A stretch of DNA of 64,000 bases. Origin: Cyanobacteriota bacterium. Lineage in GTDB: Bacteria > Cyanobacteriota > Vampirovibrionia > LMEP-6097. Shown one piece after another: positions 10,299 to 53,840 of the stretch. The notes beneath the pieces are model-generated. The model was not told the origin of the DNA. It did not search any database and worked only from the letters and a program-made list of their open reading frames with translations. The first letter of the stretch is position 1; each line of letters begins with the position of its first letter. Where the stretch lies: positions 1,225 through 65,224 of the forward strand of contig JAQCFG010000001.1 in the NCBI GenBank assembly GCA_027618255.1, written 5' to 3'. A program made the position numbers and the translations under genes.

Positions 10299-10307
10299 TT
10301 TTGATAG

Positions 10308-11968: not shown

Positions 11969-11972
11969 AATT

Positions 11973-12160: not shown

Positions 12161-12176
12161 TTCTACTGGCTACTCC

Positions 12177-14935: not shown

Positions 14936-15068
14936 TATCAGGCATCCATTCTATCAAGTAAGTCTCTAATTACTTTTAAACTATATATTTGAGTGAAAAC
15001 CCTCAGTGGTCTTATTTTAATATCAAAAAACCTCAACTGCTAGACTTATATAGTCTAGAGGAAATTTT

Positions 15069-15485
15069 ATGTCTGGTATCACAAATTTAGGTCACATAGT
15101 AACAGATAGAGCTAACGTAGCGCAGGATATTCAAACTAGAGACAAAGTCCGTGAGTTTGGCGATATTGTTGCTGGTGTTTTATCAGGAGCTAATGACGGT
15201 GAACCAAAAGCAAGCTCCCCTGAAGACCAAGCTGCTGCTACAAGATATGCAGCAAATGTTGCAGGAGCACATTTGCTAATGGGAACAGGCAATGTCACAC
15301 CAAAACAAGCTAATCAGTTAAAAAATGACGCTGACTTTGCAAGAAGAGCTGCTGGAGGCGATGAAGTTATTTTAGAGGATGTTATCAAAGTTGCTGAACA
15401 AGTTGCCAATAATGGAGATCCAGAAGTTGGTGGGACTATGATTCTATCGGTTGCAGAGCATCTAGGTAAAATTGCACAATCTTAG
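15069..15485 (+). CDS. Hypothetical Ala/Gly-rich protein, divergent from the RloC-like gene
   Basis: 138-aa ORF with a low-complexity N-terminus MSGITNLGHIV, similar in style to other uncharacterised proteins in this window. Confidence 0.35.
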   Translation: MSGITNLGHIVTDRANVAQDIQTRDKVREFGDIVAGVLSGANDGEPKASSPEDQAAATRYAANVAGAHLLMGTGNVTPKQANQLKNDADFARRAAGGDEVILEDVIKVAEQVANNGDPEVGGTMILSVAEHLGKIAQS

Positions 15486-15539
15486 GAACAAGCAAATTTT
15501 ACTGGCCATTTCTTTTTTAGTTTTGTATAATCCATAATA

Positions 15540-17171
15540 ATGGATAAATATTTTATTTACTGTAGGAAATCCTCCGACTCAGAGGATAGACAAATGCTTT
15601 CTATTGAAGCTCAATTACAAGAACTCAGAGACTATGCTCGTAAAGAAAAGCTTGAAATAGTTAGAGAGTTCACCGAGTCTAAAACAGCGAAGAAACCTGG
15701 CAGAGAGATCTTTAATGAAATGATCTCAGAGATTGAAGCTGGTAAGGCTGATGGGATAGTAGCCTGGAATCCAGATCGCTTAGCAAGGAACTCTGTTGAT
15801 GGTGGAAGAATAATTTATCTTATTGATGAAGCTGTAATAAAGGATCTTAAGTTTCCGACTGCTTGGTTTGATAATTCACCTCAAGGCAAATTCAATCTCT
15901 CTATAGCTTTTGGGCAAGCAAAATTTTATGTCGATAATCTTAGACAGAACGTTCATCGTGGCATACGCCAGAAACTACGCAAAGGACAGTATTGCAATAA
16001 AGCTCCTCTTGGATATATTAATCACCCTAAAACTAGAACTATAGAACCTGATCCTGTTGAGTTTGACTTGATGAGAAAAACTTTTGATCTATTCCTTACT
16101 GGAAACTGTTCACAGACTGAGATTCGACAAGCAATGTTTGAAATGGGAATTAAGAATCAAACTGGTGATAGAATCCACAGAGATAAAGTAAAAAAGACTC
16201 TTCAGAATCCATTTTATTATGGCTACTCCTATCACAAAGGAGAACTCTACGAAGCCTCTCACCAGCCTATGATAACAAAAGCTGAGCATGAAGAAGTACA
16301 AAGAATCCTAAAACTCAAATCTAAGAACAAATACAAAACTACTAAGAAGGATAAGAAGAAAAGAGATTTCTTTTTCTTAGGTTTTGAGAAGTGCGGTGAG
16401 TGTGGCTGTAGTTTTACAGCAGAAAGACATGAAAAGAAAAAATATAACGCAGTCTGGAAATATTACAGATGCTCTAAGAAAAAGAAAGACATGGATTGCG
16501 ATCAACCTTACCTCAAAGAAGAAATACTTTCTGGGCAAGTAAAAGATACTGTCTCAAGGATAGCCTTAAGTGATGACTGGAGCGAGCTTGCGCTTAAGAC
16601 TCTAGACTCCTGGGCAGACACAGAGCGACAGTCATCACTTAAAACAGCCAAGAACCTTGAGTCAGATCTAAAAATCATCAGAGAAAAGCTTGAAAGGCTA
16701 CTAGATCTTCATTTGGATGGTGTTTTATCATCTGGTGAATACAAAAGCAAAAAAAATGCTCTAATAAGCTCCAAGCTAAAACTTGAAACTCAGCTCTCTC
16801 AAATCAAACAAGACGGTGTAGTTTGGCTCGAACCAAGCAAGACACTTATAAAAGAAGCTAATAGAGCCAAGAAATTAGTTGAAGAAGAAAATTATCACGA
16901 AATGCGCTCTTTACTTCAAAAAGCAGGCTCGAACCAATTAATACGAGATAGAAAGTTCAGCATGAACTACCTTGAGCCATGGAATTTTCTTATCGAGCTA
17001 AACTCTTCATTCCTGTTACACAGCAGCCAGAGCTATGCTCTCACTGAATTACCTTCAGAAAATGCGCTAGTGGGGTGGGCGGGAATAAAAAAATCCCCGC
17101 GCAGCGGGCAACCGATAAGGGGCTCGGAATGCCAGTTGGCTGCGGGGATGTCAGAATGGTGCGTCCGCTAG
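15540..17171 (+). CDS. Large serine recombinase (resolvase/invertase catalytic domain, recombinase domain and zinc ribbon)
   Basis: The N-terminus YCRKSSDSEDRQMLSIEAQ carries the catalytic Ser context; CGECGCS...YYRCS is the zinc ribbon; there is a C-terminal coiled coil. The stop codon lies inside repeat unit C. Confidence 0.8.
   Translation: MDKYFIYCRKSSDSEDRQMLSIEAQLQELRDYARKEKLEIVREFTESKTAKKPGREIFNEMISEIEAGKADGIVAWNPDRLARNSVDGGRIIYLIDEAVIKDLKFPTAWFDNSPQGKFNLSIAFGQAKFYVDNLRQNVHRGIRQKLRKGQYCNKAPLGYINHPKTRTIEPDPVEFDLMRKTFDLFLTGNCSQTEIRQAMFEMGIKNQTGDRIHRDKVKKTLQNPFYYGYSYHKGELYEASHQPMITKAEHEEVQRILKLKSKNKYKTTKKDKKKRDFFFLGFEKCGECGCSFTAERHEKKKYNAVWKYYRCSKKKKDMDCDQPYLKEEILSGQVKDTVSRIALSDDWSELALKTLDSWADTERQSSLKTAKNLESDLKIIREKLERLLDLHLDGVLSSGEYKSKKNALISSKLKLETQLSQIKQDGVVWLEPSKTLIKEANRAKKLVEEENYHEMRSLLQKAGSNQLIRDRKFSMNYLEPWNFLIELNSSFLLHSSQSYALTELPSENALVGWAGIKKSPRSGQPIRGSECQLAAGMSEWCVR
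16975..17150. repeat. Right arm of the ~176-bp inverted repeat (the recombinase 3' end)
   Basis: Reverse complement of 12177..12355. Confidence 0.75.
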
Positions 17172-17359
17172 GATTTGAACCTAGGACAATGGTCAAGCCA
17201 AATGCGATTACCAGTCAACCCAATGTCCTTAGGGCTTGACCAAAATCGGCTAAAGCCGAAGTGATTTTTTTATGTAATTTGCTTTGCAAATTACTGGTCT
17301 GAGAGCACTTCTTGGCTTTTAACCGATTGGTCCCGGGTTCAGGTTCTAGTGGAAGTACC
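17156..17359. repeat. Island-end repeat unit C (31 nt identical to the tRNA-Lys 3' end, a spacer with hairpin, and a pseudo tRNA-Lys 3' half in plus orientation)
   Basis: tggtgcgtccgctaggatttgaacctaggac matches 17405..17435. Downstream, gagagcacttcttggcttttaaccgattggtcc mimics the D-arm and anticodon arm of tRNA-Lys(UUU). Confidence 0.7.
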
Positions 17360-17362
17360 TTA

Positions 17363-17402
17363 AAAATCAAAAATCACCCACAAGGGGTGATTTTTGATTT
17401 TT
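17363..17402. terminator. Perfect 18-bp palindromic intrinsic terminator (A-run, stem, T-run) abutting the tRNA-Lys 3' end
   Basis: aaaaatcaaaaatcaccc-acaa-gggtgatttttgattttt. Confidence 0.65.
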
Positions 17403-17404
17403 AA

Positions 17405-17481
17405 TGGTGCGTCCGCTAGGATTTGAACCTAGGACCAATCGGTTAAAAGCCGAGTGCTCTACCGGGCTGAGCTACGGACGC
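17405..17481 (-). tRNA. tRNA-Lys (anticodon UUU) with encoded CCA
   Basis: Reverse complement GCGTCCGTAGCTCAGCCCGGTAGAGCACTCGGCTTTTAACCGATTGGTCCTAGGTTCAAATCCTAGCGGACGCACCA folds by hand into a cloverleaf with a 7-bp acceptor stem, anticodon loop CTTTTAA and T-loop TTCAAAT. Confidence 0.85.
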
Positions 17482-19675: not shown

Positions 19676-19972
19676 ATGGACCCAGTCTGGTGGATTATTA
19701 TTTCAGTCATGCCAATACTAATTTTTGGACTCTTGGTAATACAAGCAGATAGACAAGCTCCTGAAGAAGCTTCAGAGCAACAACCCTAAATCTATAAAGG
19801 AGAGGGGAATGATTTTAAAAACTAATAAGGAGAGTATCCTGAGTAGCAAAGCTCAGGGTACGAGCAAAAACGCACATCCCGGCTATTGTAAGAGCTCAGG
19901 GCTTAGATATACCCTTTCGACAAAAGATGGCGGTAGGAGCTCAGGGGCTATATATACCCTTGCAGATGAAAA

Positions 19973-20047
<75 letters not shown>

Positions 20048-20069
20048 ACGGAGCAAGCTCATCAACAAA

Positions 20070-21749
20070 ATGAGTTTCTCTAAGAATACTACAACAACTT
20101 TAGTATCGGTGCTAGTATTGATGATTTTTTCATTTTTAAACCCTCTTCTTGCTAATACCAATTACCAAAGTAAGCTAGTTTTAAGCAAAAATACCAGTAT
20201 TGACCAAATTCGCTTCTTTAGGGATAGCTATATTTATAGCAATTATGGTCAGCTTTATTTTAAAGATTCTGCCATCAAACTACTCAACTCTAATGAGCAG
20301 GGCATAGTGATCAATGACATTTTTATCGACAACAATGATTTCTATCTAGCTACTGACATGGGGATCTTTCATAATTACCGCAGGATTTTTAGCAAAGAAC
20401 CTTGCCAGCAAATTATCAAAACACCTTCGCAAATATTTATCGCTTGCCAGCAAGGAATCTATAACGCCAAAATCGAAAAGAAAACTCTTCAGACTCATTT
20501 TGACTGGCAGCTCGATGAACTCAGTCCGCAAAATCCCAACTTCATTAGTCTCAATAAATCCAAAACCAAAGTCAAATACGCAAGCGCTACTAATGGATTC
20601 TTTTATCACGAGCGAAGCACTAGTTCCGTTAGTAAAGAGGGAATAGATTTGCGCAAGAAATCTAATCAGTGGATTAATAGAAGTTATGGACTCAAACGAG
20701 ACTTTCAAGACTCATTTGGTTTTGGTCGATTCCTAGAGCATGAAGCCAAATTATACCTAGCAACAAGCTCTGGCATTTTCACGAGTGCTAATCAAGGAGA
20801 ATCATGGGTAAAACACAACACTGGGCTCAAAGCCAATGCTGATGGCTTCTTTAGCATTAGGCAAATCAATCTTTACAATGGTCAGCTATTAGCTTTAACT
20901 AGTCAGGGTTTGTATCAATCACTTATACAAGAAGAACTTGACTGGCACCAAATCACAATTGCAAATACAAAAAAATCCTCAAACTATCAAAGTGATTTTT
21001 TGTCACTAGATATTCTTGATTCCACGATAATTCTTAGTAACTCACAAGGACAAGTTTTTAATTTGTCACCAGATACAAGTTATACAGCTTCAATCCACAA
21101 AGAAGAAAATCTACAACAAAATACCATAGAAGCAATAATCAAAGCAGAACCGAAGATCCAAGACTTACATAATATTGCATTAGAATTTGCTGGTATCCCC
21201 ACAGGCAAAAATTTTCGCACTTACAAAAGACAGGCTCGTCTAAGAAATCTCGTACCCGATTTTGAAGCATTTGCTGAGCATGACAGCCAAGACATTCTTT
21301 CAATTGAGACAGATGCTGGAGATAGCTTCACCTCAAATACAAGTAGCATCAACACTGATTTTGGCAAAACCAATCTTGATCGCGATGACGATAAAATCAA
21401 TACCGGAATCAAGTTTAAATGGAACCTGAGTAACTTAATTTATGACCCAGAAATCAATGACATTAATACTAGTGCAAGAATCACCGCCAATATCAGAGAG
21501 AACATTCTGACTGAACTTACCCAGATTTATTACAATCGCAAAGAACTTATTTATAGATTACTCAAACAAAGCCTCAATGAAACGACAGATGGTAATTACA
21601 AAGACAAACTACGTCTTGAAGAATACACTGCTCAACTTGACGCCCGTACCGGAGCTTGGTTTAGTCAAGAGCTTGAAAAAACTATCCAGAGCATAGTCGA
21701 GAATCTCGATCCAGAGAATCGAGCTCGAATACTCGCTCTTTACACATAG
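20070..21749 (+). CDS. Secreted hypothetical protein (Ser/Asn-rich)
   Basis: The ORF track start at 19809 overlaps tRNA-Gln. The first in-frame ATG after the tRNA is at 20070 and gives MSFSKNTTTTLVSVLVLMIFSFLNPLLA, which looks like a signal peptide. Confidence 0.5.
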   Translation: MSFSKNTTTTLVSVLVLMIFSFLNPLLANTNYQSKLVLSKNTSIDQIRFFRDSYIYSNYGQLYFKDSAIKLLNSNEQGIVINDIFIDNNDFYLATDMGIFHNYRRIFSKEPCQQIIKTPSQIFIACQQGIYNAKIEKKTLQTHFDWQLDELSPQNPNFISLNKSKTKVKYASATNGFFYHERSTSSVSKEGIDLRKKSNQWINRSYGLKRDFQDSFGFGRFLEHEAKLYLATSSGIFTSANQGESWVKHNTGLKANADGFFSIRQINLYNGQLLALTSQGLYQSLIQEELDWHQITIANTKKSSNYQSDFLSLDILDSTIILSNSQGQVFNLSPDTSYTASIHKEENLQQNTIEAIIKAEPKIQDLHNIALEFAGIPTGKNFRTYKRQARLRNLVPDFEAFAEHDSQDILSIETDAGDSFTSNTSSINTDFGKTNLDRDDDKINTGIKFKWNLSNLIYDPEINDINTSARITANIRENILTELTQIYYNRKELIYRLLKQSLNETTDGNYKDKLRLEEYTAQLDARTGAWFSQELEKTIQSIVENLDPENRARILALYT

Positions 21750-21761
21750 GAGAAAACAATC

Positions 21762-22814
21762 ATGAATTATATTATTTACCTGCTACTAGTATTAGTAGTA
21801 CTCAATCCAGCACTCGCCCGAAGAATCAAAGGCATACCCAGCCCTGTTATTAATCAAATCGACAAGCCACTTAGCAGCCCAAATACAATCATCGAGCTAC
21901 AAGGGCAAGGTTTTATCAAAGGTATGCCAAACGCTCACAAAGTAATTTTGACTAATAATGAACAAAAAATCAAAGCACAAGTCATCAAAGCCAATGGTGA
22001 TATGCTTAGACTGCAAATTCCACCGGAACTAAGTTATGGTGACTTTGATATTTACGTCCAAATCAAAACTCGTCTACTCAAAAGCAAACGCAGCAAATCA
22101 AGTGAGCCATTATTACTAAGACCAGTCGCTCCAGCCAAACCAGACTTGAATTATCAAACAATACAGCATCAAAGTGAGTTAGATTACATATATAACAATG
22201 ATAATGAGTTAGATTATGAATTATTAGACGAGATCAAAATCGGAGAAAATAAAATACAATCATTTTATTACCAAGATGGTTTTCAAAGTATCAAAAGTGA
22301 GCCCAGTAATTTTTATTATCTCCCAGAACTGGCTATAGAAAACCAACTTGAGATCAACTCTGAATTACCAATCGAATCTTTTGCTGTCAATAAATTCCTC
22401 GGTACAAAGTATGACGTCAGTCCAGTGACTAATACTGAGCTCAATGAACTCTCTAGACATTATTACCTCAAAACCCCATCCCGAGAGCGTTACCTAGAAT
22501 ATTCCATCGAGCTCAGCCCGGTCTTCATTGAGCAAATCCATGTTACAGAACCAGAATATGCACTAATCAAAAACAGATCAAGTACTGACTTCGATTTAAG
22601 CAATTGCAATTTTGCTGACAGTATAAGAGACCGCTATCAATTTACCAATGAAACAATTCCAGCCAAATCACAGCTACGTATCGAAACTAATCTTGGACTC
22701 AATGACACAGGAGCTGATCAACTAAAACTCAAATGTAGTGAAATAAGCATAGATCAGTTTGCTTATGACAAACTCGATGAAGCTGGCTTTGGGATTAAAC
22801 TAAGGACTCGCTGA
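21762..22814 (+). CDS. Secreted hypothetical protein
   Basis: Signal peptide MNYIIYLLLVLVVLNPALA; 13 nt downstream of the previous gene, so probably an operon. Confidence 0.5.
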   Translation: MNYIIYLLLVLVVLNPALARRIKGIPSPVINQIDKPLSSPNTIIELQGQGFIKGMPNAHKVILTNNEQKIKAQVIKANGDMLRLQIPPELSYGDFDIYVQIKTRLLKSKRSKSSEPLLLRPVAPAKPDLNYQTIQHQSELDYIYNNDNELDYELLDEIKIGENKIQSFYYQDGFQSIKSEPSNFYYLPELAIENQLEINSELPIESFAVNKFLGTKYDVSPVTNTELNELSRHYYLKTPSRERYLEYSIELSPVFIEQIHVTEPEYALIKNRSSTDFDLSNCNFADSIRDRYQFTNETIPAKSQLRIETNLGLNDTGADQLKLKCSEISIDQFAYDKLDEAGFGIKLRTR

Positions 22815-29035: not shown

Positions 29036-30427
29036 ATGATGGTAGATATTAGGAACGACGACGTAGCTGAAATCATCGAGCTACTCCCAGTGACAATACA
29101 AAAGATACTCAAAGAACATGACCTCAGCAGACTAATAGAAATAGTAATCGACCTTGGCAGAATCCCCGAAGCCAGATTTGCAAAAAACAAAACAATACTA
29201 CTAGGTGAGACAAGCGCCACCAAAGACACCATTAAAAATATAACAAGCCAGATCGGAGAATTCGATCACTCAAATAGAACAGGACTCGAAGGCACATTAC
29301 ACAGAATAAGTTGTGTCAAAAACAAAAATAACATAGTAATAGGATTAACAATGCGAATTGGCAGATCCATCTTTGGCACCATTCAAATCATCAAAGACTA
29401 TTTAGACCAAAATAAATCTGTACTACTCTTGGGTCCTCCAGGTGTAGGCAAAACTACTATGTTAAGAGAGATTGCTCATCACCTTTCAACTCAAAAGGAA
29501 AAACGTGTAGTTGTCATAGATACATCAAACGAGATTGCAGGAGACAGTGATATACCACACGCAGCAATCGGCAGATCGCGTAGAATGCAATTACCATACG
29601 ACAAGAAACAACACGATGTAATGATTGAAGCTGTTGAAAACCATACACCAGAAGTCATTGTTATTGATGAGATCGGAACCAAAGAAGATGCCGAAGCAGC
29701 AAGAACAATCGCAGAACGTGGTGTAACGCTAGTTGGAACGGCTCATGGTATCAATATAGAAAACGTAATCCAGAATCCAACTCTTAGTGATTTGGTTGGT
29801 GGAATACAATGCGTTACTCTTGGCGACGAAGAAGCCAAAAAGCGCGGTACCCGCAAAACCATATTAGAGAGAGCTTCTAAACCAACTTTTGATATTTGTA
29901 TTGAGATCATTGATAAATATACAGTCAATGTGCACAAGAATGTAGCCAATAGTGTTGACGCGATATTACGTGAATCACCAATACATCCAGAACTGCGCAA
30001 GCGCGATAAGGAAACAGACGAAGTTACTATTTTAGAAAGAGCAGAGACACAAGCAGGTGTTGCAGAGTTACCTTTTCACAAAGATAGTATGACAATTGCT
30101 ATTTATCCTTACGCGATCAGTAAATCATTACTCAAAAGAGCAGCAAGCACTTATAGCGAAATCAAATTCTCTATAGTGAACACGCTTGATGACGCTGATG
30201 TGGTTTTTGCACTCAAGAGTTACACAAGCGCTGATTCCAAGATCTTTAAGATCACAGAATCAAAAAACCTAACAATCAAGATTGTCGATGAGAATTCACT
30301 AGGCAAAATTAGCCAAAGCCTGGAGCAGTTGGTTATTGACCTTCCTTATATAGACAAAGACTGGAATAATGCACAAGGTGGTATTGCAGACCTTGAGAGC
30401 ATTAAGCTAGCAAAGCGAGCTATATAA
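29036..30427 (+). CDS. AAA ATPase of the SpoIIIAA/Ycf45-like family
   Basis: LLLGPPGVGKTTMLREIA, VVVIDTSNEIAG, PEVIVIDEIGTKEDAEAA and TLVGTAHG, a pattern characteristic of SpoIIIAA/Ycf45. Confidence 0.55.
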   Translation: MMVDIRNDDVAEIIELLPVTIQKILKEHDLSRLIEIVIDLGRIPEARFAKNKTILLGETSATKDTIKNITSQIGEFDHSNRTGLEGTLHRISCVKNKNNIVIGLTMRIGRSIFGTIQIIKDYLDQNKSVLLLGPPGVGKTTMLREIAHHLSTQKEKRVVVIDTSNEIAGDSDIPHAAIGRSRRMQLPYDKKQHDVMIEAVENHTPEVIVIDEIGTKEDAEAARTIAERGVTLVGTAHGINIENVIQNPTLSDLVGGIQCVTLGDEEAKKRGTRKTILERASKPTFDICIEIIDKYTVNVHKNVANSVDAILRESPIHPELRKRDKETDEVTILERAETQAGVAELPFHKDSMTIAIYPYAISKSLLKRAASTYSEIKFSIVNTLDDADVVFALKSYTSADSKIFKITESKNLTIKIVDENSLGKISQSLEQLVIDLPYIDKDWNNAQGGIADLESIKLAKRAI

Positions 30428-30625
30428 CAACTCAAAGATTCACTAGATCTCATTACAATAAAGGAAGAGCTCTTCAACAGGGCTCTTTTCTTCATTTAGA
30501 AACCCTTTATTAGCAAGGTGTTATAGCTTCACTAAAAAAAATATCCCAATTTTAACCCAAGCTTAACTTCTATAGGTTAAATAAATCATAGTTGGGCAAA
30601 AGTCCTAGCTACAAGAAGGAAAATC

Positions 30626-32095
30626 ATGGTAACGATCAAAGTATCTATTACAGACCTCAAGTCAGCCATCAGCAAGGCCCAGGCAAAGGCCGCTAATGCA
30701 GAAAATAAAAATACAGACAATAGAATCCTTGATTCACAAATCAGAGGCGCCAATGCAAGAGTTAAAGATGCAGAATCTGCTGTAACCAGATCTGAAATGA
30801 CCAAGCAAGAGGCTCAAGACAAATTATCACCACCACCAACAAAACAAGTAACTTCTGACGGAAAGAAAGGCGGCACCAAGACAGTTGTAGACGAAAGAGA
30901 AAAAGATAAATTACAAGCTCAAGTAAGAGCAGCTGATACGCAAATTCAACAAGCACAATCTGCAGTTGAAGACTCTCGTGCTGAAGCAGAGAAATTGACT
31001 TCTCAAGCATTAGATGGAGCTGGAGTAAGCGGACAGCAGCAGCAAGCAATGGGTGAACTTTCTGATCTTGTTTCTCAGCTTAAAGCTACAGCTGAAAATG
31101 CTACTGAAGATGAGTTAACAGGAGATGATTTCCAAACTAAATTAAAATCAGCAGTAGATCAATCAGCCAAACTAGCAGAAGAATTACCAAATAAGGGAAA
31201 TGAAGCTCTTATTAGTTTCTGGAAGGAAATACAAGAAGGTTTTGAATCAATTAAAGAAGATTTTACGACGGGTACAACACCAGATGCTTATGAAATCCCA
31301 ACCAATGACGATGATAATAATTATGCTCAGTTCTTCCAAGATTTTAACACTGGAATGGCAAAACTAATTACCAGACTAGAACCGGGTGGTACTGACGAGG
31401 ACGCATTAGCTGATCCATCCGGAACAATAGTAACAAGAATCACAAAGGCACGAGATTCAATAATGGACAAGTCAGGCAAATTCCTACAGGGACTTAACGA
31501 GAATGACACCAAAAAATTAACAGAATTGATGGATCAAATCAATATCATGAATAACAATCTTGATAAAGATAGAGAAGTTCCAAGTACTGATTTTTCAAAA
31601 TTGATTGCTTCAACCAATGGATTTTCTAATATATTAGAAAATGGAGGCGGCAACTTTAATCTAATACTAAATACTCAATTCAACACCCTTGATAGTAGTG
31701 CTGGAAGAATCCAAAACAATATCCCAGCAAATCAAAGATTTACAGACCTGATGACTACTTTAGGTGGCATCAATAATCCAAATCAATACAATGGATTACT
31801 TGCAACTGACTTTGAAGCAATCAAAGGGATCCAAGAGCAATTTGCTGATGCATCTACTGCAATTAGGAACCAAGGTGGCTTTAGTACAGATGGAACAGGA
31901 TTTAGTGAGCAAGACTTCACGGAATTGATGGATCAAACAGAGGCATTAGCGACGAGATTAACAGAGGATTACAATCTTAATCCACCACCAGTAGTAACTA
32001 ATTCAGGTTCAGGTACAACACCTAATGGTCCACCAGTAAATAGTAGACGAAGAGGCGAAGCAGCATCAAGGGTAGGCTCAGTGGGAACAAGGTAA
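30626..32095 (+). CDS. Hypothetical coiled-coil protein, paralog A of the 30.6-35.3 kb cluster
   Basis: RBS AAGGAA; no signal peptide; the motif LSPPPTKQVTSDGKKGGTKTVVDE is shared with the 34344 protein. Confidence 0.5.
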   Translation: MVTIKVSITDLKSAISKAQAKAANAENKNTDNRILDSQIRGANARVKDAESAVTRSEMTKQEAQDKLSPPPTKQVTSDGKKGGTKTVVDEREKDKLQAQVRAADTQIQQAQSAVEDSRAEAEKLTSQALDGAGVSGQQQQAMGELSDLVSQLKATAENATEDELTGDDFQTKLKSAVDQSAKLAEELPNKGNEALISFWKEIQEGFESIKEDFTTGTTPDAYEIPTNDDDNNYAQFFQDFNTGMAKLITRLEPGGTDEDALADPSGTIVTRITKARDSIMDKSGKFLQGLNENDTKKLTELMDQINIMNNNLDKDREVPSTDFSKLIASTNGFSNILENGGGNFNLILNTQFNTLDSSAGRIQNNIPANQRFTDLMTTLGGINNPNQYNGLLATDFEAIKGIQEQFADASTAIRNQGGFSTDGTGFSEQDFTELMDQTEALATRLTEDYNLNPPPVVTNSGSGTTPNGPPVNSRRRGEAASRVGSVGTR

Positions 32096-32109
32096 CAAGG
32101 GAGAAAACA

Positions 32110-32784
32110 ATGACAACAACAATAACATCATACTTACAAAAAACAAAACTCTATGAAGAAAAACTTCTTGAGATATATTCTAAGAAGCAAAGCATCATGC
32201 AAGTTTTGAAAGCGGCAGTAGCGCAAGAAGAGCATTTCCGCAAGGGTGCTCACCTCAATAGCAGCACTGTATTAATCAAAGCAGAAAACAGTGATGAAAC
32301 TGGTCTTTGGACAGTTACAATCGAAGTAGATCACGGCAAGGTAGTTTACACCTGCATGGATGAAGATGCAAACCATATCAATATCTTCAGTATTCCAAAC
32401 GCCAAATATATCAAAGACAAAGAGAACTTGTCAGAGGGTGAAATTAAAGCGATTCAAATTCATGCTTCAAACTCAATAGACCTCAACCTTAAAGATGTAA
32501 AGACTTTGAGAATGGCTAAAGAGCATTTCAAAGATGACTATGTTCTTAAGCATGTACCTCTTTATCACTTAGATTCAGACAATGCAGCAAGATTTATCAT
32601 CTGGCACATCAAAGCATACAAAAAAGTATTCAAAGATTATATCAACACTTTTGAATTCCTTTGGGAAGGTACTAGCTTTAAGAATGCTAGAAGCTTAGCT
32701 AAAGAAATGGTTGCAAGAGATTTAGTTGCAGCAGATTATTTCAAAGTAGAAGAGCAGAAGGAACTAACAGAATCACTGGGCTAA
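32110..32784 (+). CDS. Hypothetical protein (cluster member)
   Basis: 224-aa ORF, 15 nt downstream of the previous gene. Confidence 0.45.
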   Translation: MTTTITSYLQKTKLYEEKLLEIYSKKQSIMQVLKAAVAQEEHFRKGAHLNSSTVLIKAENSDETGLWTVTIEVDHGKVVYTCMDEDANHINIFSIPNAKYIKDKENLSEGEIKAIQIHASNSIDLNLKDVKTLRMAKEHFKDDYVLKHVPLYHLDSDNAARFIIWHIKAYKKVFKDYINTFEFLWEGTSFKNARSLAKEMVARDLVAADYFKVEEQKELTESLG

Positions 32785-32801
32785 CGTGAGGATAAAATAT
32801 A

Positions 32802-34325
32802 ATGGCAAACAGCATAACTCAATCAGCAATAGAAGCAACAGGTGATGGTCACAAAATCACCGAGAAAAGCACAATGCAAGCTTACCAGCAGCAAAAAGAA
32901 GAAGCTACTTTTCTTGGTGAAGCAGCACAAACTGGACAAGAAAGATCTAAAGCTATCTCTGAATATTTTTCAAGTGGAGCTGAACAAAGTAAGCAACAAG
33001 GCATGAACCTCATGCAAAGTGGTACTGTCAAAAAAGCAGTGGGTTTCGGTTTTGTCGCACTAGGAGCATCCTTCAAAGCAATGGCAGCAATTCCATTTAT
33101 TGGACCAATGAAAGCAGCAGCAGGTATTGAAATGATGGCCAAGGGTGCTGGTAAAATCGCTGAAGGTGTTATTGATCATAGCCAAGGCAAGAAATTAATT
33201 GCAGCAGCTAATGAAGCATTAGAAAAAGCAACTAATCACAAAGTTATAAGTAAAGATCACGCCAAAGTTGCAAGAAAAGAAATCAACAGAGCAACAATCT
33301 TTGAACGCAAGATTGAAGTATTAAGACAAATGCTCGACGAACTTGGTATCGAAAATGAGGACATGAGCGCTGAGGATTTAGAAAAACTCAAAATAGAATT
33401 CACTGAGAATTTTGATAAGAATTTTGAAGATGCTGCATCAACCCTATTAAACGGCGGCATTATGGCTCTTGATGGTATTCAAGACGAAGCTGGCAAGGAG
33501 ACAGGAACTCAATTCTTTATCAAAGAAGGCGATGATTACTTCGCTCTTGATGTTCCAAGAGACGATCTTGGCAATCCGTTAACTGGTGAAAGAGGCGAAC
33601 CACTAATCAAGTTTGACGAAGAGCAAGGTAGACATCTTGGTGAATTAGTTGTAGACGAAGATTTGATTGATTTACTCGACACCAAATTTAAATTTGTAGA
33701 CGCTCTTAAAAGCATGGCAGCAGAACTAAGTACTACTGGTTTTGACTCCAATGAAAATGCAGTATCTATACCATATGACTTAGGTAATAGAGAACATCTT
33801 GAAGAATTTGTTGATCTGGTTTTTAAAACTAATATTAATGACATTAAACAAGGTAGAGCACCAGCACCACTTCTATTAACTGAGGAAAATGGTGAACCTG
33901 GTTTCCAAAAAGTTGAATATGATCTTGATCCAAACTCTCCAACCTTTGGTAGAACTATACCTGTAGGTATCTTTGTTTCATTCTTTGAAATGGGTGGTGG
34001 TGAAGATCCTCGAGGTGATGGTATTGAATCATTTACTTATGCTATTGAAAGAAGTCAAAGATCATTAGCAGAAGTTGGACTTAATCAAGGTGGCAATATC
34101 TATGGCTATGTTGGACCAACAACAGATCGCCAGCAAGACTTTGCACAAAACACAGACAGTGGCGACTTTGGAGAATTAAGTGGAAGAAACAGCGATGCTT
34201 TTGCTGCTTTTCAATCAAGTATCAGTAGCACAGTAGAACTTAGTCAAGCAAGAAGTATCTTCAGCTCTCAAAGAGACATCCTCGGTGGATCTCAAGCAGA
34301 CGCTGTAGGGGAAGGGCAAGCGTAA
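32802..34325 (+). CDS. Hypothetical protein with a Gly/Ala-rich hydrophobic hairpin (cluster member)
   Basis: Residues ~75-120, VKKAVGFGFVALGASFKAMAAIPFIGPMKAAAGIEMMAKGAG, are followed by a coiled coil and an acidic C-terminus; no signal peptide. Confidence 0.45.
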   Translation: MANSITQSAIEATGDGHKITEKSTMQAYQQQKEEATFLGEAAQTGQERSKAISEYFSSGAEQSKQQGMNLMQSGTVKKAVGFGFVALGASFKAMAAIPFIGPMKAAAGIEMMAKGAGKIAEGVIDHSQGKKLIAAANEALEKATNHKVISKDHAKVARKEINRATIFERKIEVLRQMLDELGIENEDMSAEDLEKLKIEFTENFDKNFEDAASTLLNGGIMALDGIQDEAGKETGTQFFIKEGDDYFALDVPRDDLGNPLTGERGEPLIKFDEEQGRHLGELVVDEDLIDLLDTKFKFVDALKSMAAELSTTGFDSNENAVSIPYDLGNREHLEEFVDLVFKTNINDIKQGRAPAPLLLTEENGEPGFQKVEYDLDPNSPTFGRTIPVGIFVSFFEMGGGEDPRGDGIESFTYAIERSQRSLAEVGLNQGGNIYGYVGPTTDRQQDFAQNTDSGDFGELSGRNSDAFAAFQSSISSTVELSQARSIFSSQRDILGGSQADAVGEGQA

Positions 34326-34343
34326 AAAAAAAGGAAAGACATT

Positions 34344-35321
34344 ATGACAGCAGCAGGGGTAAAATCACAACTAAAATCGGCAATAACAAGTATTCAGAGT
34401 AAGGCTTCAGAAGTTGCTACTGGCTCATTTGCCCAAGATGTCGCAGCTGACAAAGCGACACAATCACAAAGTATTGTCAGAATCAAGGAGAGTGTTACAA
34501 GTGCTCGCGAAAAAGATTTAGACAATATTCTAGAGAAGCTCAACCCTCCACCAACCAAAGATATTGATACAGGTGGTAAGAACGGTGGTACCAAAACTGT
34601 AGTGGATAAAGAAGAAGTTGCTAAACTGGAAAGACAAAAAAATAATATTCAAGGACAACTTGAGCAAGCAAGATCTGACGTAGAAACAGCAAGATCTGAA
34701 GCTGCTACAGATGCAACAGCAGCTCTAGAGAAAGCCGGAGTAACAAAAGAAAAACAATCAGAGATGGGCTCTCTACTGAGTCAAATTAATTCAATGAATG
34801 ATAGTCTCGCTAAAGGAGGCACAGTATCCGAAGATCAAGTCAAACAAATCACTGATAAATTCGCCAGTATTAGTGCTGACCTGGGTAAAGACGATAACGT
34901 CTCTGGGGCAATCACTAAAGCCTTCTATAATCCAGTCAAAGCAGGATTGGAGAAAATGCTTAAATATATTGAAAAACCAGTCGCGCCAAGAGATACAAAT
35001 CCTCAACCGCCAGCACCAGCTGGCACAGTGAATGCTGATCTTGCTGCAGTTGGCATTACTGGTCAAAAATCCGATGACATTATTGGTTTTATGGAAAGAG
35101 TAGCTAATGTTGGCAAAGGCATTGAAGCAGGAGGAAGCTATACTGAAGCGCAAATGCAAACTTTGTTGGACGATCACACAGCCCTTACTTCTGGACTGAC
35201 TGAAGCTCAACAGACTAGTGCACCATTAACCGAATTAAAAACATCTGTCTTCTCTGTAATAAGGGCTAGTGGTCATGGTGACGCAGTACTACCAACAGCT
35301 GGGGCTAACACTGGCGGATAA
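34344..35321 (+). CDS. Hypothetical coiled-coil protein, paralog B of the cluster
   Basis: LNPPPTKDIDTGGKNGGTKTVVDKEE and an N-terminus similar to the 30626 protein. Confidence 0.5.
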   Translation: MTAAGVKSQLKSAITSIQSKASEVATGSFAQDVAADKATQSQSIVRIKESVTSAREKDLDNILEKLNPPPTKDIDTGGKNGGTKTVVDKEEVAKLERQKNNIQGQLEQARSDVETARSEAATDATAALEKAGVTKEKQSEMGSLLSQINSMNDSLAKGGTVSEDQVKQITDKFASISADLGKDDNVSGAITKAFYNPVKAGLEKMLKYIEKPVAPRDTNPQPPAPAGTVNADLAAVGITGQKSDDIIGFMERVANVGKGIEAGGSYTEAQMQTLLDDHTALTSGLTEAQQTSAPLTELKTSVFSVIRASGHGDAVLPTAGANTGG

Positions 35322-37439
35322 TTATTTTTCTTCCAGTTTCTCTCTAAGCGATTTCAAATGATCTCTATAAAGAGCAGCATTCTCAAAGTCTAAAGATTTT
35401 GCAGCATCTTTCATTTCATCCTCGAGCTTATCAATAGCTTGTATCAAATCACGCTTGGACATTTGAGCCAGTGGTTTAGTGAGCATGCTATCAAATAAAG
35501 CACTAGCTGCTATTCTTTGCTCTTCATCCAACTTATCAAAAGCATCAAGAATTGGATTAGAAACAGGTTTTAAAACAGTTCGAGGAATTATACAGTGTTC
35601 AATATTATGAGCAACTTGCATTGCTCTACGTCTATCAGTTTCATCAATCGCTTTTGCCATACTATCTGTAGTCCTGTCTGCAAACATAATTACTTTAGAC
35701 TTGGAGTTACGCGCAGCTCTACCAATCATCTGAATCAAAGTACGGTAATTTCTCAAGAATCCTTCTTTGTCGGCATCCATAATACAAACAAGCGAAACCT
35801 CTGGTAGATCAATCCCCTCTCTTAACAAATTCACACCGACCAAAACATCGTACTCATCTTTACGCAAATCGTTCAATAATTTAATTCGATCAAGTGACTT
35901 GATTTCACTATGTAAATAACGAGCAGCTATTTCATGTTCAACCAAATACTCACTCAAATCCTCTGCCATCTTTTTGGTTAAAGTATTAACTATCACTTTT
36001 TCGTTCTTCGGGAAATACATGGTCGCATCGGCTGCATGATATTGCTCAGGATCAAGTGACCTTGCGGTACGGATCTTAATTTCTTCAATTAATTTATCAA
36101 CTTGTCCTTTGGTTTCGTGAATCTCAAGCTCTGGATCAACCAAACCAGTTGGTCTAATTATCAATTCAGTTGGTTCAGGACTGCGCTCTAGCTCTTCTTC
36201 ACCAGGAGTAGCAGAGACATAAATAATCTGCTTGGCTCTTGAATCAAACTCTTCATATTTAAGAGGTCTGTTGTCAATTGCACAAGGTAAACGAAAACCA
36301 TAGTCAACTAAAACAGACTTGCGACTTAAGTCACCATAATACATCGCTCTTAATTGAGGCAATGTCATATGCGACTCATCAATGAAGCAAATCCAACCAT
36401 CCTCTCCATAACGGCGATTCATATAATCAATCAAAACCTTGGGAGAAGATCCTGGTTCACGTTCTTCTAATATTCGCGAATAATTCTCAATACCATTGCA
36501 ATAACCTACTTCTTTGATCATCTCAATGTCATATCTGGTTCGTTGCAAGATTCTTTGAGCTTCGACATCCTTGCCTTGTTTTTTAAACTCATTAACCTTA
36601 TCTTCAAGCTCTTTTTCAATTTGTTTAACTGCTCTTTCCAAAGTATCTTCATCAGTGACATAATGCTTAGCAGGAAAAACCTTAACTTCTTCCATCAACT
36701 CCAAAATCTCACCAGTGAGCCGGTCAACGTAGGCGAGCCTTTCAATTTCATCTCCAAAAAATTCTATCCGGAGGATTCTTTCTTCATCAGCCTGATGAAT
36801 CTCAATAATCTCACCACGAACTCGAAACAAACCACGAGTGATCTGAGTATCATTGCGGCGATATTGAATTCCAACCAATTGATTCAAGAATTCCTTCAAG
36901 TCAATCAACATGCCGACTTCAAGCAAGATCGCTGACTTGAAATACAACTCAGGAATCCCCAAACCATAAATACAACTCACCGATGCGACCACTATCACAT
37001 CATCTCTTTCAAAAATTGACCTGGTGGTTGAATACCTCATTCTATCAATATCATCATTGACTTTAGCCGTCTTCTCTATAAAGGTGTCAGAGTGAGGGAT
37101 ATAGCTCTCTGGCTGGTAATAATCATAGTAACTAATAAAATACTCAACCCTATTCTCTGGGAAGAATTCCTTGAACTCATTACAAAGCTGCCCAGCCAAA
37201 GTTTTGTTGTGTGCCAAAACCAAAGCCGGTTTTTGAGTCAGCTCAATAATCTTGGCCATCGTAAAAGTCTTACCAGAACCTGTGATCCCCAACAAAGTCT
37301 GTCTTGGAACTGCGTCTTTAACCCTTTGGACTATTTCTTCAATAACTTTGGGTTGATCACCAGCTGGCTCAAACTTGCTTTGGACTTTAAAGTGGTCTTG
37401 CTTTGTTTCTTGCACTTCTTTATTATAGCTTAAAGCCAA
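35322..37439 (-). CDS. uvrB: Excinuclease ABC subunit B
   Basis: GITGSGKTFTMAKII Walker A and full-length UvrB architecture (705 aa). Confidence 0.9.
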   Translation of the reverse strand: MALSYNKEVQETKQDHFKVQSKFEPAGDQPKVIEEIVQRVKDAVPRQTLLGITGSGKTFTMAKIIELTQKPALVLAHNKTLAGQLCNEFKEFFPENRVEYFISYYDYYQPESYIPHSDTFIEKTAKVNDDIDRMRYSTTRSIFERDDVIVVASVSCIYGLGIPELYFKSAILLEVGMLIDLKEFLNQLVGIQYRRNDTQITRGLFRVRGEIIEIHQADEERILRIEFFGDEIERLAYVDRLTGEILELMEEVKVFPAKHYVTDEDTLERAVKQIEKELEDKVNEFKKQGKDVEAQRILQRTRYDIEMIKEVGYCNGIENYSRILEEREPGSSPKVLIDYMNRRYGEDGWICFIDESHMTLPQLRAMYYGDLSRKSVLVDYGFRLPCAIDNRPLKYEEFDSRAKQIIYVSATPGEEELERSPEPTELIIRPTGLVDPELEIHETKGQVDKLIEEIKIRTARSLDPEQYHAADATMYFPKNEKVIVNTLTKKMAEDLSEYLVEHEIAARYLHSEIKSLDRIKLLNDLRKDEYDVLVGVNLLREGIDLPEVSLVCIMDADKEGFLRNYRTLIQMIGRAARNSKSKVIMFADRTTDSMAKAIDETDRRRAMQVAHNIEHCIIPRTVLKPVSNPILDAFDKLDEEQRIAASALFDSMLTKPLAQMSKRDLIQAIDKLEDEMKDAAKSLDFENAALYRDHLKSLREKLEEK

Positions 37440-52093: not shown

Positions 52094-52344
52094 AGTGCAG
52101 ACAATATTAGCAACAAACTAACTAGATCTGATCGACCTGTACATCGAAACTTCGTTTCGAAACATGTCTAAAGTATTGCTTACAAAAGAATTGACAAAAA
52201 CATATTTATTTCTTATAAGAAATTTTCAATTGAAATAAATTCCAAAGTATATACAGATAACTTCAAAAGATTTAAAAATGTTCCGAGAATCTATTGACGG
52301 CCCGGGCCTATGGTATTAAGATTTTTAATATCAGGAACAAAAAT

Positions 52345-52989
52345 ATGAGATTAGATTTTTCAGAAAGCACAGATTTAGAGATAGTAGAACTTTGTCAGAT
52401 AGGAAAGAAAGAAGCTTTTAAGGAACTCGTCAAGAGATACCAAAAAAATGTTTTTGCTCTTTTATATCAACTGGCGCCAGAGTGGAGAGACCTCAATGAC
52501 TTATCCCAAGAGGTTTTCATTAGAGTTTATAGAGGAGTACACAATCTTCGCAACCCTAAGATCTTCAAATCATGGCTAAACCAAATTGTATTGAATTTAT
52601 TTTACGATGAGCTTCGCAAAAGACCACGTCGCGTCAAAACGGTAAGCATGGATCAAACTTATGAAGATGATAGTGGTGAGAACGAATTCATTAGAGAAGT
52701 TAGAGATCTCAAGCAAAAACCTGATGAAATCATCAGTAGCAACGAAACTAAGAACGCTATCAAAAAAGCAATGGCTCAATTACCGGAACAGTTCAGAACG
52801 GCAATCGTCTTGAGAGAACTACAGGGTCTGCAATACGAGGAGATCGCCGAATTACTCGGATGCGCTCTAGGCACTGTAAAATCGAGGATTTGGCGTGCAA
52901 GAGAAAGATTACAGGTATTACTTGAACCATTTTTACAAGAGGCTGGCTATTTTCATGCAGACGGCGGATTTCAGTCAAACGCGTTCTAA
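52345..52989 (+). CDS. ECF-type RNA polymerase sigma factor
   Basis: Region 2 (EVFIRVYRGVHNLRNP) and region 4 (RTAIVLRELQGLQYEEIAELLGCALGTVKSRIWRARERL) are present. The ATG at 52345 has an AGGAA Shine-Dalgarno. Confidence 0.75.
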   Translation: MRLDFSESTDLEIVELCQIGKKEAFKELVKRYQKNVFALLYQLAPEWRDLNDLSQEVFIRVYRGVHNLRNPKIFKSWLNQIVLNLFYDELRKRPRRVKTVSMDQTYEDDSGENEFIREVRDLKQKPDEIISSNETKNAIKKAMAQLPEQFRTAIVLRELQGLQYEEIAELLGCALGTVKSRIWRARERLQVLLEPFLQEAGYFHADGGFQSNAF

Positions 52990-53099
52990 CAGAGTTCTTT
53001 CTAAGCCATTTATGGATTCAACAGAACTCTACCAAAGAGCTTGTAACCAGGTAGCTAAAGCCACTAGGACCAGCTAATAGAGTATAATTAAGCCAGGTA

Positions 53100-53840
53100 T
53101 TGATACCTGGCTATTGTTTTTACATGATTGACAAAGAAGATAAAACCAAAAACAAAGACTCCAAGGACAGAAAGCCCGATGAGATCATTGAATTATTAAC
53201 TAATTTTTATGAACCTGAGGATTTAGAAATAGAAGAGTTTGATTTATTCTTTGACTCCATTGAACAAAAACTAGAAGATCAAAATCCAGTAAACAGAATT
53301 TCCAAGATTAGTGATCAAATTGAAACCAATATTAATCTTCGCGAACAAAAATTAGCCCAACTACTTAGAAGACTCGATCAAAAGAAAAATACCAGTCAAG
53401 TGAAAAAATCTAAGAAGTTGAAATTGAAACCTATTATCGCAATCGTGGTGATTTTACTGCTCATTACCTTAGCAAGTATTGCAAGAATCAACAATACTCA
53501 AAACTATAATTACATTAGCCTTGAAGGCGAGAATCTTGATTGGCAAAGTCTCAATCTAAACGAGACTCAAAAAACTCAACTTGAAGCAATCGATAACGAA
53601 TGGTTAGCGTTTAAAAGCAGTGAAGAGACTCTCATTGAAAGCAGAAGAACAAAACTAGTTACTGAGATGAACGCAAGTTCTCCTGACTTCTTGCAAATAG
53701 ATAAATACCAAAGAGAGATACTTGACCACGAGGTTATGCTCAAGCGTCAAAAACTAAACACTTTTCTTGAAAAACGTTTTATTCTTAATGAAGAACAGAG
53801 TCTTCAATTAATTAGAGAGATTGGTAAGCAAGCTAAATAG
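53100..53840 (+). CDS. Putative anti-sigma factor: a single-pass membrane, coiled-coil protein
   Basis: Located directly downstream of the ECF sigma gene; one transmembrane helix IIAIVVILLLITLASIA; called by position only. Confidence 0.35.
   Translation: MIPGYCFYMIDKEDKTKNKDSKDRKPDEIIELLTNFYEPEDLEIEEFDLFFDSIEQKLEDQNPVNRISKISDQIETNINLREQKLAQLLRRLDQKKNTSQVKKSKKLKLKPIIAIVVILLLITLASIARINNTQNYNYISLEGENLDWQSLNLNETQKTQLEAIDNEWLAFKSSEETLIESRRTKLVTEMNASSPDFLQIDKYQREILDHEVMLKRQKLNTFLEKRFILNEEQSLQLIREIGKQAK

Follow-up and report, generated by a model that had tools for sequence, protein, structure and literature searches.

A vertically inherited four-gene operon of the Caenarcaniphilales encodes new protein families that may form a membrane-tethered complex

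Four consecutive genes, designated A, B, C and D, form a real operon that is specific to the order Caenarcaniphilales and vertically inherited, and their protein families are new in the sense that nothing known matched them in the searches run. The interpretation that we put first, tentatively, is that the four proteins build a stable hetero-oligomeric complex with a scaffold role on the cytoplasmic face of the inner membrane. The order comprises uncultured relatives of cyanobacteria that do not photosynthesise, and to our knowledge their cell biology is essentially unknown. Since the operon persists across the species-level genomes in which B was found, and since B evolves at a housekeeping-like rate, it likely provides something that the cells need, yet none of its proteins fits a known family or solved fold.

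Operon layout and genomic context

The layout of the genes was analyzed in the window, i.e. the whole stretch of 64,000 nucleotides, which belongs to a Melainabacteria MAG. Genes A (30626..32095, 489 aa), B (32110..32784, 224 aa), C (32802..34325, 507 aa) and D (34344..35321, 325 aa) all lie on the forward strand and are all maximal open reading frames; the four co-directional, tightly spaced genes described by the sequence-only reading were confirmed at exactly these positions and lengths. They are separated by 14, 17 and 18 nt (A-B, B-C and C-D) and each is preceded by a Shine-Dalgarno-like motif which, for A, reads AAGGA (30616..30620, forward strand) and ends 5 nt before the ATG. The directly upstream neighbour is a ycf45-like AAA/R3H gene (29036-30427), followed on its 3' side by a terminator-like hairpin of 11 pairs and a T-run (30463..30489, forward strand). 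This hairpin is the 5' boundary of the operon, and the gap of 198 nt between 30428 and 30625 presumably holds the operon's own promoter. The short gaps, the Shine-Dalgarno-like motif of each gene and the terminator-like hairpin after the upstream gene establish A-B-C-D as an operon. On the other side lies uvrB (35322-37439, reverse strand), which is convergent, its stop codon abutting that of D. In relatives the gap between ycf45 and A ranges from 68 to 304 nt, and the A-B and B-C gaps from -23 to +42 nt in loci with both genes on the contig. Alignment of the upstream regions of 17 loci, where a regulatory element was sought, gave no obvious shared motif. The window also encodes one protein with a Secretin_N domain, about 19 kb from the operon.

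All four families are kept in related genomes, which indicates that the genes are real. The A-B-C trio is syntenic, among housekeeping genes, in the species-representative genomes where it was found; where informatively named, these genomes belong to Caenarcaniphilales, Melainabacteria or cyanobacteria. Co-occurrence of the four genes in relatives, a question raised by the sequence-only reading, stood for the trio and failed for D, which is accessory (missing or strongly diverged in several relatives). The order A, B, C is found in every locus with a long enough contig, in two different genomic neighbourhoods: in clade 1 the locus is located between ycf45 and uvrB, a synteny kept in genomes with ClpX down to ~70-75% identity, and in clade 2 it adjoins ispG. 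The ycf45-like ATPase was considered as an obligatory partner and rejected, because the adjacency is limited to clade 1, the terminator-like hairpin intervenes and ispG takes the place beside the clade-2 loci.

In clade 2, a second Caenarcaniphilales clade, two genes take the place of C, one for a hairpin protein and one for a stand-alone core protein of 229-231 aa; the hairpin module and the core domain (C-core) are thus separate genes there, and one polypeptide in the clade of the window. Clade-2 loci also carry additional partner proteins, very acidic and of low complexity, and, immediately before the A-like gene, a gene for a WelO5-like Fe(II)/2OG oxygenase (29.9 bits, cut-off 27). No such oxygenase gene is present in the window or in any ycf45-linked locus.

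Features of the four proteins

Judged by their alignment, A and D are true paralogs, and the paralogy announced by the sequence-only reading survived this comparison (BLASTP, 32% identity over 204 aa, E=1e-20, with a second matching segment at E=1e-4). A is composed of an N-terminal helical hairpin, helical repeat modules of ~55-70 aa and a Gly/Ser/Asn-rich tail with a basic end. Between two heptad segments lies a conserved loop (residues 67-90, LSPPPTKQVTSDGKKGGTKTVVDE; 30824..30895, forward strand), which belongs to the most conserved part of the protein: among 24 family members, 12 of the 30 invariant columns fall within K66-E92, so that the LxPPPTK…GGTKTVVD block seen earlier is indeed conserved. 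The invariant residues in or beside the loop are K66, L67, S68, P69, P70, P71, K73, K80, V88, D89, E90 and E92, and the motif is still recognisable among distant A-like proteins. Repeat modules 2 (residues 283-352; 31472..31681, forward strand) and 3 (residues 385-452; 31778..31981, forward strand) match each other by hhalign with a probability of 97% (E=1e-10); a weaker first copy, residues 126-205, aligns in register with both (E=1.3e-3). D is a shorter version of A, of which it is an optional duplicate: it has the same hairpin, the loop LNPPPTK…GGTKTVVDK (residues 66-89; 34539..34610, forward strand, located by the A-D alignment and read from the sequence) and further helical segments, one of which matches a repeat region of A.

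Heptad segments, defined by a crude score above the 99th percentile of shuffles, were found in A (1-68 and 84-175), D (8-60 and 86-129) and C (130-194). They flank the conserved loop in D as in A, and weak matches to tropomyosin, SMC and Rad50 agree with them. The long heptad repeats of coiled-coil-rich proteins are therefore present in A, D and C; the earlier description of all four proteins as coiled-coil holds for these three and not for B, in which the same score against shuffles gave no heptad segment.

B is predicted to be a compact alpha/beta protein (AF2 pLDDT 86.8), with a helical hairpin (2-45), a beta-meander (47-96) and then a helix, a strand and helices. It is the best-conserved member of the operon, with numerous His, Asp, Trp and Tyr residues among its invariant positions, which include H42, D74, H75, D84, K99, E111, D129, R161, W165, H166, Y170, K172 and W185. 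Identity across relatives is 62-67% for B, compared to 72-75% for UvrB, 54-56% for LdpA and 31-39% for A, C and D. By these sequence comparisons B evolves at a housekeeping-like rate, and the gap between B and the other three fits one constrained globular subunit with loosely constrained helical partners. Divergent B-like genes always have a gene for a polar helical protein directly upstream. We also considered B and C-core as remote paralogs, in view of their similar order of secondary-structure elements, but hhalign did not support it (E=0.0074, probability 5%; E=0.16 with richer profiles).

C is made up, in order, of an N-terminal helical region, a hydrophobic hairpin, the core domain, a beta-rich extension, a low-confidence linker and a conserved C-terminal peptide. 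The hydrophobic stretch (residues ~76-120; 33027..33161, forward strand) is Gly/Ala/Met-rich and is a putative membrane hairpin. Its highest 19-residue Kyte-Doolittle average (KD19) is 1.68, over residues 79-100, compared to 0.46 in A, 0.54 in B and 0.67 in D; it is the only hydrophobic stretch in the four proteins, none of which has an N-terminal hydrophobic segment on this scale, in agreement with the reported lack of signal peptides. The stretch has a conserved central IPFxGP break with Lys on both sides, i.e. a helix-breaking turn within an internal uncharged hydrophobic segment, and its invariant residues in the C family are G81, G83, G88, A89, A96, P98 and G101. All C-like proteins examined keep the Gly/Ala-rich segment pointed out by the sequence-only reading; the uncharged part measures ~30-45 residues across the C-like and c14-like proteins, and only ~29 in some members, with KD19 values of 1.3-2.1 throughout. 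Two Lys residues interrupt the stretch in the window's own C, and its insertion into a membrane is therefore not certain.

The C-core domain (residues ~130-350; 33189..33851, forward strand) was delimited by hhalign, BLASTP, HMM and AF2. It matches the stand-alone protein of clade 2 with an hhalign probability of 95.8% (E=8e-9 over residues 154-343), BLASTP links it to the stand-alone proteins with E down to 4e-19, and an HMM built from these detects the domain in the listed C proteins. In the AF2 model of C, most block means between residues 131 and 400 fall in the range 70-88, and confidence is below 50 over residues 1-127, which include the hairpin, and 429-507. The C-terminal peptide (residues ~463-507; 34188..34322, forward strand) follows the variable linker in this second low-confidence region. 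It has the pattern SDAF..F…LSQAR…DILGGS..DAV..GQA, in which A466, F467, F470, S473, L480, R484, D492, L494, G496, S497, D500 and G505 are nearly invariant.

Comparison with known families and folds

Searches of A-D against Pfam, NCBIfam, PADLOC and PHROGs returned only weak noise of coiled-coil type: the PADLOC matches concern A and D, and the PHROGs matches have no known function. In the PDB, sequence and profile searches gave no match for B and C, and tropomyosin-type coiled-coil matches only for A. The sequence-only reading had set a match to a well-characterised family, flagellar hook-associated or phasin-type, against its own proposal, and none was found: even at E<=1, A-D have no Pfam or NCBIfam match to the flagellar Flg_bb_rod, Flagellin_N/C and FliD_N/C domains, and none to Phasin or Phasin_2. 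Neither A nor D matches PspA_IM30. For the membrane partner, no homology to PspB, PspC, PspM or LiaI emerged; the one match, to Rv2743c in 1 of 12 C homologs, covers the hairpin region (E=8e-4) and is below threshold, with 19.6 bits for a cut-off of 27.7. When the B and C families were scanned member by member against Pfam, MetOD1 was hit by 10 of the 12 C members, always below threshold (best E 0.0022), and YidB gave a single match; like the Rv2743c match, these were judged to be driven by composition or helices. C showed no homology to the translocator families IpaB/SipB/YopB, IpaC and EspB/D, and B no resemblance to class I (CesT/SycE-like) or class II (TPR) secretion chaperones. Literature searches on Caenarcaniphilales, and on coiled coils in Melainabacteria, likewise gave no account of these genes.

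Discussion

From these features we infer complex formation, membrane topology, cytoplasmic location and a scaffold function for A-D. C would be the anchor, its Gly/Ala/Met-rich stretch inserting as a hairpin in the inner membrane, so that the helical region before the hairpin and the large core domain after it would both remain cytoplasmic. B would be the conserved globular subunit and would pair with the elongated A, probably through the invariant basic PPPTK…GGTKTVVDE loop that caps the helical hairpin of A. D, as a later duplicate, could substitute for A or extend the assembly. Together the four proteins would act as a membrane-organising or envelope-maintenance scaffold rather than as exported effectors. 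The fusion and fission of hairpin and C-core can be argued to mean that both work together in one compartment, and the fusion points to a stable complex rather than to a chaperone-substrate pair. Should this be true, the operon would encode a new kind of bacterial membrane-organising complex.

A known system of related design is the mycobacterial envelope-stress operon ClgR-PspA-PspM(Rv2743c)-PspN, whose PspM is confined to mycobacteria and corynebacteria (PMC11237479). Like it, the A-D operon is lineage-restricted and combines a coiled-coil protein, a putative two-helix membrane anchor and an uncharacterised globular protein; unlike it, A and D lack PspA_IM30 and the operon has no regulator gene. 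Cyanobacterial CCRPs, such as the ZicK/ZacK pair of Anabaena, are a class defined by features and not by homology, and the comparison with them is likewise one of features: adjacent genes, signal-less proteins, long heptad segments and the cyanobacterial phylum are shared, to which the operon adds the conserved globular modules B and C-core and the putative membrane hairpin. Chlamydial Inc proteins, reticulons and oleosins are hairpin-anchored membrane proteins. C resembles them in having an internal uncharged segment of ~30-45 residues, broken by a turn in its middle and bordered by soluble domains; it has no homology to them, and its Gly/Ala/Met-rich composition is nearer to a glycine zipper.

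The strongest competing explanation, which we nevertheless regard as unlikely, is that A, C and D are exported independently of a signal peptide by a flagellar or non-flagellar T3SS, a T4SS or a T1SS. The hairpin of C would then enter a target or outer membrane as translocators do, with B as the cytosolic chaperone that maintains A in an unfolded or soluble state. T3SS translocon operons, e.g. ipgC-ipaB-ipaC-ipaD and sicA-sipBCD, associate Cys-free coiled-coil proteins, a hydrophobic-hairpin protein and a small globular partner, and the A-D operon is like them in its tightness, in these components and in the lack of signal peptides. The composition of A, C and D counts against the complex and would suit export: their 1321 residues include not a single Cys and hardly any Trp, the proteins are acidic, and Thr, Ala, Gly, Ser, Asp and Asn abound in them. 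They also evolve faster than B, and a globular partner accompanies each of the elongated helical proteins, so that the cassettes resemble substrate-chaperone pairs. Across clades the hairpin proteins have a short motif in common at the N-terminus (MxG/N-N/S-I/L-…), a possible export signal, and C has its conserved C-terminal peptide. Flagellar genes are reported for Caenarcaniphilales (PMC4040986). However, the neighbourhoods examined (the 64-kb window, and stretches of at most ~21 kb from relatives) contain no secretion-apparatus gene within 8-10 kb in any locus inspected. Unlike in translocon operons, sequence, profile and fold comparisons link A-D to no translocator, tip, effector or chaperone family, Pfam and NCBIfam included, and B is alpha/beta, not of TPR or CesT type, and unlike any known secretion chaperone. 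The fusion of the hairpin module to a globular partner domain in C is awkward for a chaperone and its substrate, and the operon is vertically inherited in a core-genome position inside housekeeping synteny.

We give a rather low probability to A-D being a self-contained membrane-active machine unique to Caenarcaniphilales, either an export or translocon-like device or a complex for attacking or attaching to algal or particle-associated hosts. Its parts may be B and C-core, both unmatched in the PDB searches run, the glycine-zipper hairpin, and the helical-hairpin proteins with their invariant PPPTK loop. An export or attack device would bear on how Caenarcaniphilales interact with algae or particles.

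About equally improbable is a coat or scaffold on an inclusion inside the cell, be it a lipid droplet, a PHA or polyphosphate granule or some other organelle-like body; the short C hairpin, with a proline in its turn, would then lie within a monolayer or single leaflet as in oleosins or reticulons, and A and D would form a surface lattice. The uncharged stretch of ~29 residues in some members is too short for two full transmembrane spans and keeps the IPFxGP turn, A and D are helical repeat proteins, and the very acidic partners of clade 2 would suit such a coat. Against it, no phasin, perilipin or oleosin family is matched, storage-polymer or lipid-synthesis genes are linked in no locus, and we found no report of inclusions in Caenarcaniphilales.

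Still less probable is that the helical proteins are clients of B, which would be an unrecognised enzyme or ligand-binding protein acting on the Lys/Thr/Pro-rich loop of A and D to modify or load it. The unusually many invariant polar and aromatic residues of B (the invariant His, Asp, Tyr and Trp would fit an enzyme as well as a complex subunit) and the invariant loop of A and D agree with it, and the WelO5-like oxygenase gene of clade 2 hints at post-translational modification; but B has no enzyme family or fold match, and that gene is missing from the window and all ycf45-linked loci. A mobile, phage-derived or defence cargo, which the absence of functional annotation and a recombinase-flanked stretch elsewhere in the window might suggest, is effectively refuted by the conserved ycf45-uvrB synteny despite the divergence of ClpX and by the absence of relatives of A-D from the IMG/VR viral contigs, the PADLOC and PHROGs matches being weak and the GC content of the locus being that of its flanks.

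The sequence-only reading had further grouped with A-D, tentatively and by their N-termini, two orphan proteins of the window that begin at 7167 and 15069; this likeness is not homology (best E 0.11). The open reading frame at 15069 is flanked by two copies of a serine-recombinase gene, one truncated and the other full-length.

Organization of the operon

The four plus-strand ORFs of the cluster were recovered exactly where the sequence-only reading had placed them: A (30626-32095, 489 aa), B (32110-32784, 224 aa), C (32802-34325, 507 aa) and D (34344-35321, 325 aa). Gaps of 14, 17 and 18 nt separate A-B, B-C and C-D, and an AAGGA, GGGAG or GAGGA motif lies 5' of each start codon. The gene upstream of A is followed by a terminator-like hairpin (30463-30489), and 198 nt lie between this gene and A. 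Together A-D make up a tightly packed operon that has a 5' region to itself, and the GC content of the locus is that of its flanks. The stop codon of D abuts that of the convergent uvrB gene; at 35319-35324 the two stops (D on the plus strand, uvrB on the minus strand) adjoin, leaving no intergenic room for separate terminators.

The absence of signal peptides was also borne out. The ORFs are maximal, which rules out an N-terminal extension hiding such a peptide, and no N-terminal hydrophobic segment is present in A-D. The sole hydrophobic stretch is internal to C (residues 79-100, KD19 1.68). Cys is absent from A, C and D, which have no more than one Trp and are acidic, with a high content of small and polar residues. 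Identity between relatives is 62-67% for B versus 31-39% for A, C and D; at the same divergence ClpX, UvrB and LdpA are respectively 74-75%, 72-75% and 54-56% identical.

Distribution and gene order

By exact match the window belongs to a MAG whose annotation is Cyanobacteria or Melainabacteria (GCA_027622095.1). Homologs of C (12), A (41) and B (34) were found, all of them unnamed hypothetical proteins. Searching the B profile against all 1.84 billion cluster representatives returned only 34 proteins (E<=0.001), and 27 B-encoding loci occur among GTDB species representatives. Informative titles of the B loci all refer to Caenarcaniphilales/Caenarcanales, Melainabacteria, Vampirovibrionia or Cyanobacteria. 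Several further records bear the title "uncultured Gammaproteobacteria", "Proteobacteria" or "bacterium"; those checked keep the same cyanobacterial synteny. The GTDB MAGs carrying the operon under the first of these titles (L012-L014, L019, L020, L024, L025, L029 and L036; SRP150892, SRP063590) mostly share ldpA-ycf45-…-uvrB or ycf45-…-uvrB synteny with cyanobacterial loci, so that these titles are probably wrong. No relatives of A or B were detected in IMG/VR viral contigs. The operon is restricted to one order and vertically inherited.

Two arrangements were distinguished. In clade 1, which includes the window, the order is ldpA or DUF3326, a ycf45-like AAA/R3H ATPase, A, B, C, an optional D and the convergent uvrB. 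D is absent from L008/L020, L023-L025 and L029, and A is short (164-235 aa) in L023-L025 and L029. One genome carries tandem full-length copies of C (487 and 508 aa; L025, 8557-11562). Clade 2 (L026-L036) has a different neighbourhood, adjoining ispG: a WelO5-like Fe(II)/2OG oxygenase, an A-like protein (257-289 aa), B (228-232 aa), a hairpin protein termed c14 (257-396 aa), a small or very acidic protein, a stand-alone protein of 229-231 aa, and finally hotdog thioesterase and ABC permease genes. The module is independent of ycf45 and uvrB. Where both genes are on the contig, A-B and B-C gaps range from -23 to +42 nt, which suggests translational coupling; the operon is probably coupled in this way.

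The oxygenase match scores 29.9 bits against a cut-off of 27. The gene (249 aa; L035, 6093-6842) holds the same position in L026, L028, L030 and L032-L034, 88-152 nt upstream of the A-like gene and preceded by a small ORF (60-91 aa); the window has no homolog of it.

Divergent B-like proteins (P0100, P0110, P0113, P0116, P0119) are always encoded directly 3' of a polar helical protein of 119-361 aa, and no C-like gene follows in L041, the single divergent locus with full downstream context. A helical protein with its B-like partner therefore makes up the minimal unit. A very divergent second B-like gene (235 aa; L037, 7548-8708) occurs in GCA_964438425.1, the assembly that also contains L036. 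It follows the gene for a 119-aa polar protein and is flanked by riboflavin-synthase, ndhC-like and folD genes, which as a set also adjoin the operon in the window; this copy may survive as a remnant of where the operon originally lay.

Structure of the proteins

The paralogy of A and D proposed from the sequence proved real (32% identity over 204 aa, E=1e-20; a second segment at E=1e-4). By crude heptad scoring against shuffles, two heptad segments flank a conserved loop in each protein (A 1-68 and 84-175; D 8-60 and 86-129). The loop region L67-E90 of A contributes 12 of the 30 invariant columns of the family (K66, L67, S68, P69, P70, P71, K73, K80, V88, D89, E90, E92), and the loop is still discernible in clade-2 proteins, e.g. 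"SPPPTMQVTESSGKGTKTKEVTDE". The adjacency of the oxygenase in clade 2 hints that this Pro/Lys/Thr-rich loop may be modified. Helical modules are repeated in A (283-352 versus 385-452, hhalign probability 97%, E=1e-10), with a weaker copy at 126-205, and a Gly/Ser/Asn-rich tail finishing in Arg residues closes the protein. The hairpin recurs in D, whose residues 132-294 can likewise be aligned to the A repeat region.

The AF2 model of B is confident (pLDDT 86.8, pTM 0.79) and consists of a helical hairpin (2-45), a beta-meander (47-96), then a helix, a strand and further helices. About 50 columns are invariant, including many His, Asp, Trp, Tyr and Lys positions.

For C, the model is confident only at residues ~131-400 (block means mostly 70-88), downstream of helices and the hydrophobic stretch. 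The putative hydrophobic hairpin noticed in C recurs in its relatives as a run of 29-45 uncharged residues, mainly G, A, M, I and V, which is interrupted by a conserved IPFxGP break and flanked on either side by Lys; in the window's C, two Lys residues lie within the stretch. A variable linker and a conserved C-terminal peptide complete the protein. The clade-2 stand-alone protein corresponds by homology to the central part of C: BLASTP against intermediate C proteins reaches E=4e-19, hhalign aligns it to C residues 154-343 (probability 95.8%, E=8e-9), and an HMM of the stand-alone proteins recovers residues ~130-350 in C proteins among the matches listed. The window's C therefore fuses a hairpin module to this globular C-core. 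In clade 2, c14 combines a helical N-terminus, a Gly/Ala hydrophobic stretch and an acidic tail. Paralogy between B and the C-core was also considered; their secondary-structure elements follow a similar order, yet profile comparison was unsupportive (E 0.0074, then 0.16).

Comparison with known families

Scans of Pfam, NCBIfam, PADLOC and PHROGs, member-wise Pfam scans of the B and C families, phmmer and profile searches of PDB sequences, and Foldseek of B against viral structures gave no credible match. Nor did flagellar hook-associated proteins or phasins match, the known families that the sequence-only reading had raised against its own proposal. A helical stretch in 10 of the 12 C members gave a sub-threshold match to MetOD1. 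A single match to Rv2743c/PspM over the hairpin region was likewise sub-threshold (19.6 bits versus a cut-off of 27.7). PspM is the two-transmembrane-helix partner of mycobacterial PspA and is limited to actinobacteria (PMC11237479); the likeness is one of analogy, not of membership. The families are new in the sense that they have no known match by sequence, profile or fold. Lineage-specific operons without assigned function are common in MAGs.

Possible role of the operon

The invariant core comprises a helical-hairpin protein, a well-conserved globular protein, and a hydrophobic-hairpin module with a second globular domain, the last two joined by gene adjacency or by fusion. Of all the observations, this fusion in C tells most. 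When one lineage keeps two proteins apart and another fuses them, they normally act jointly at a single site, and the fusion fits a stable complex better than a cell-retained chaperone with a departing substrate. We tentatively favour a cellular, membrane-tethered scaffold as the possible product of A-D, because signal peptides are absent, Lys residues flank the hydrophobic stretch at either end, the operon has a core-genome position, and no secretion gene was found in any inspected neighbourhood.

The earlier proposal that these are non-classically secreted proteins draws genuine circumstantial support from the Cys-free, fast-evolving helical proteins, from a short N-terminal motif common to the hairpin proteins and from the flagellar genes reported in Caenarcaniphilales (PMC4040986). 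However, the hairpin/globular fusion better suits a stable complex; we lean against secretion and regard it as unlikely. Less likely are a coat of inclusions, suggested by the short hairpin with its proline turn, and an enzyme with its client, to which the invariant polar residues of B and the 2OG oxygenase neighbour in clade 2 would point. A mobile or defence origin is effectively excluded.

Other features of the window

While the operon and the A/D paralogy stood, the supposed N-terminal likeness of the orphans at 7167 and 15069 to A-D did not: no similarity was found (best E 0.11). The latter orphan (138 aa) lies, together with a 366-aa orphan (minus strand) and an AAA_13 ATPase gene (12593-14935, minus strand, 780 aa, E=7e-138), between two serine-recombinase copies, a truncated N-terminus (9809-10144, 111 aa) and a full gene (15540-17171, 543 aa). 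A tRNA-Lys (17405-17481) is located just beyond the full copy. The region 9809-17481 is probably an integrated element, unrelated to the operon.

At 19809-22814, a 646-aa ORF (19809-21749) is followed by a 350-aa protein with a weak Lamin Tail Domain match; the two are a conserved uncharacterised pair (clusters c16 and c12) beside clpX in many Caenarcaniphilales loci. A tRNA-Gln (19973-20047, minus strand) overlaps the 5' end of the ORF, whose true start is thus probably downstream. A 414-aa protein (53833-55077, minus strand) has Secretin_N as its sole domain (E=2.9e-10), with no match to the Pfam secretin C-terminal domain. The same stretch (52294-55077) also encodes an ECF-type sigma factor (52294-52989) and an unannotated 246-aa ORF.
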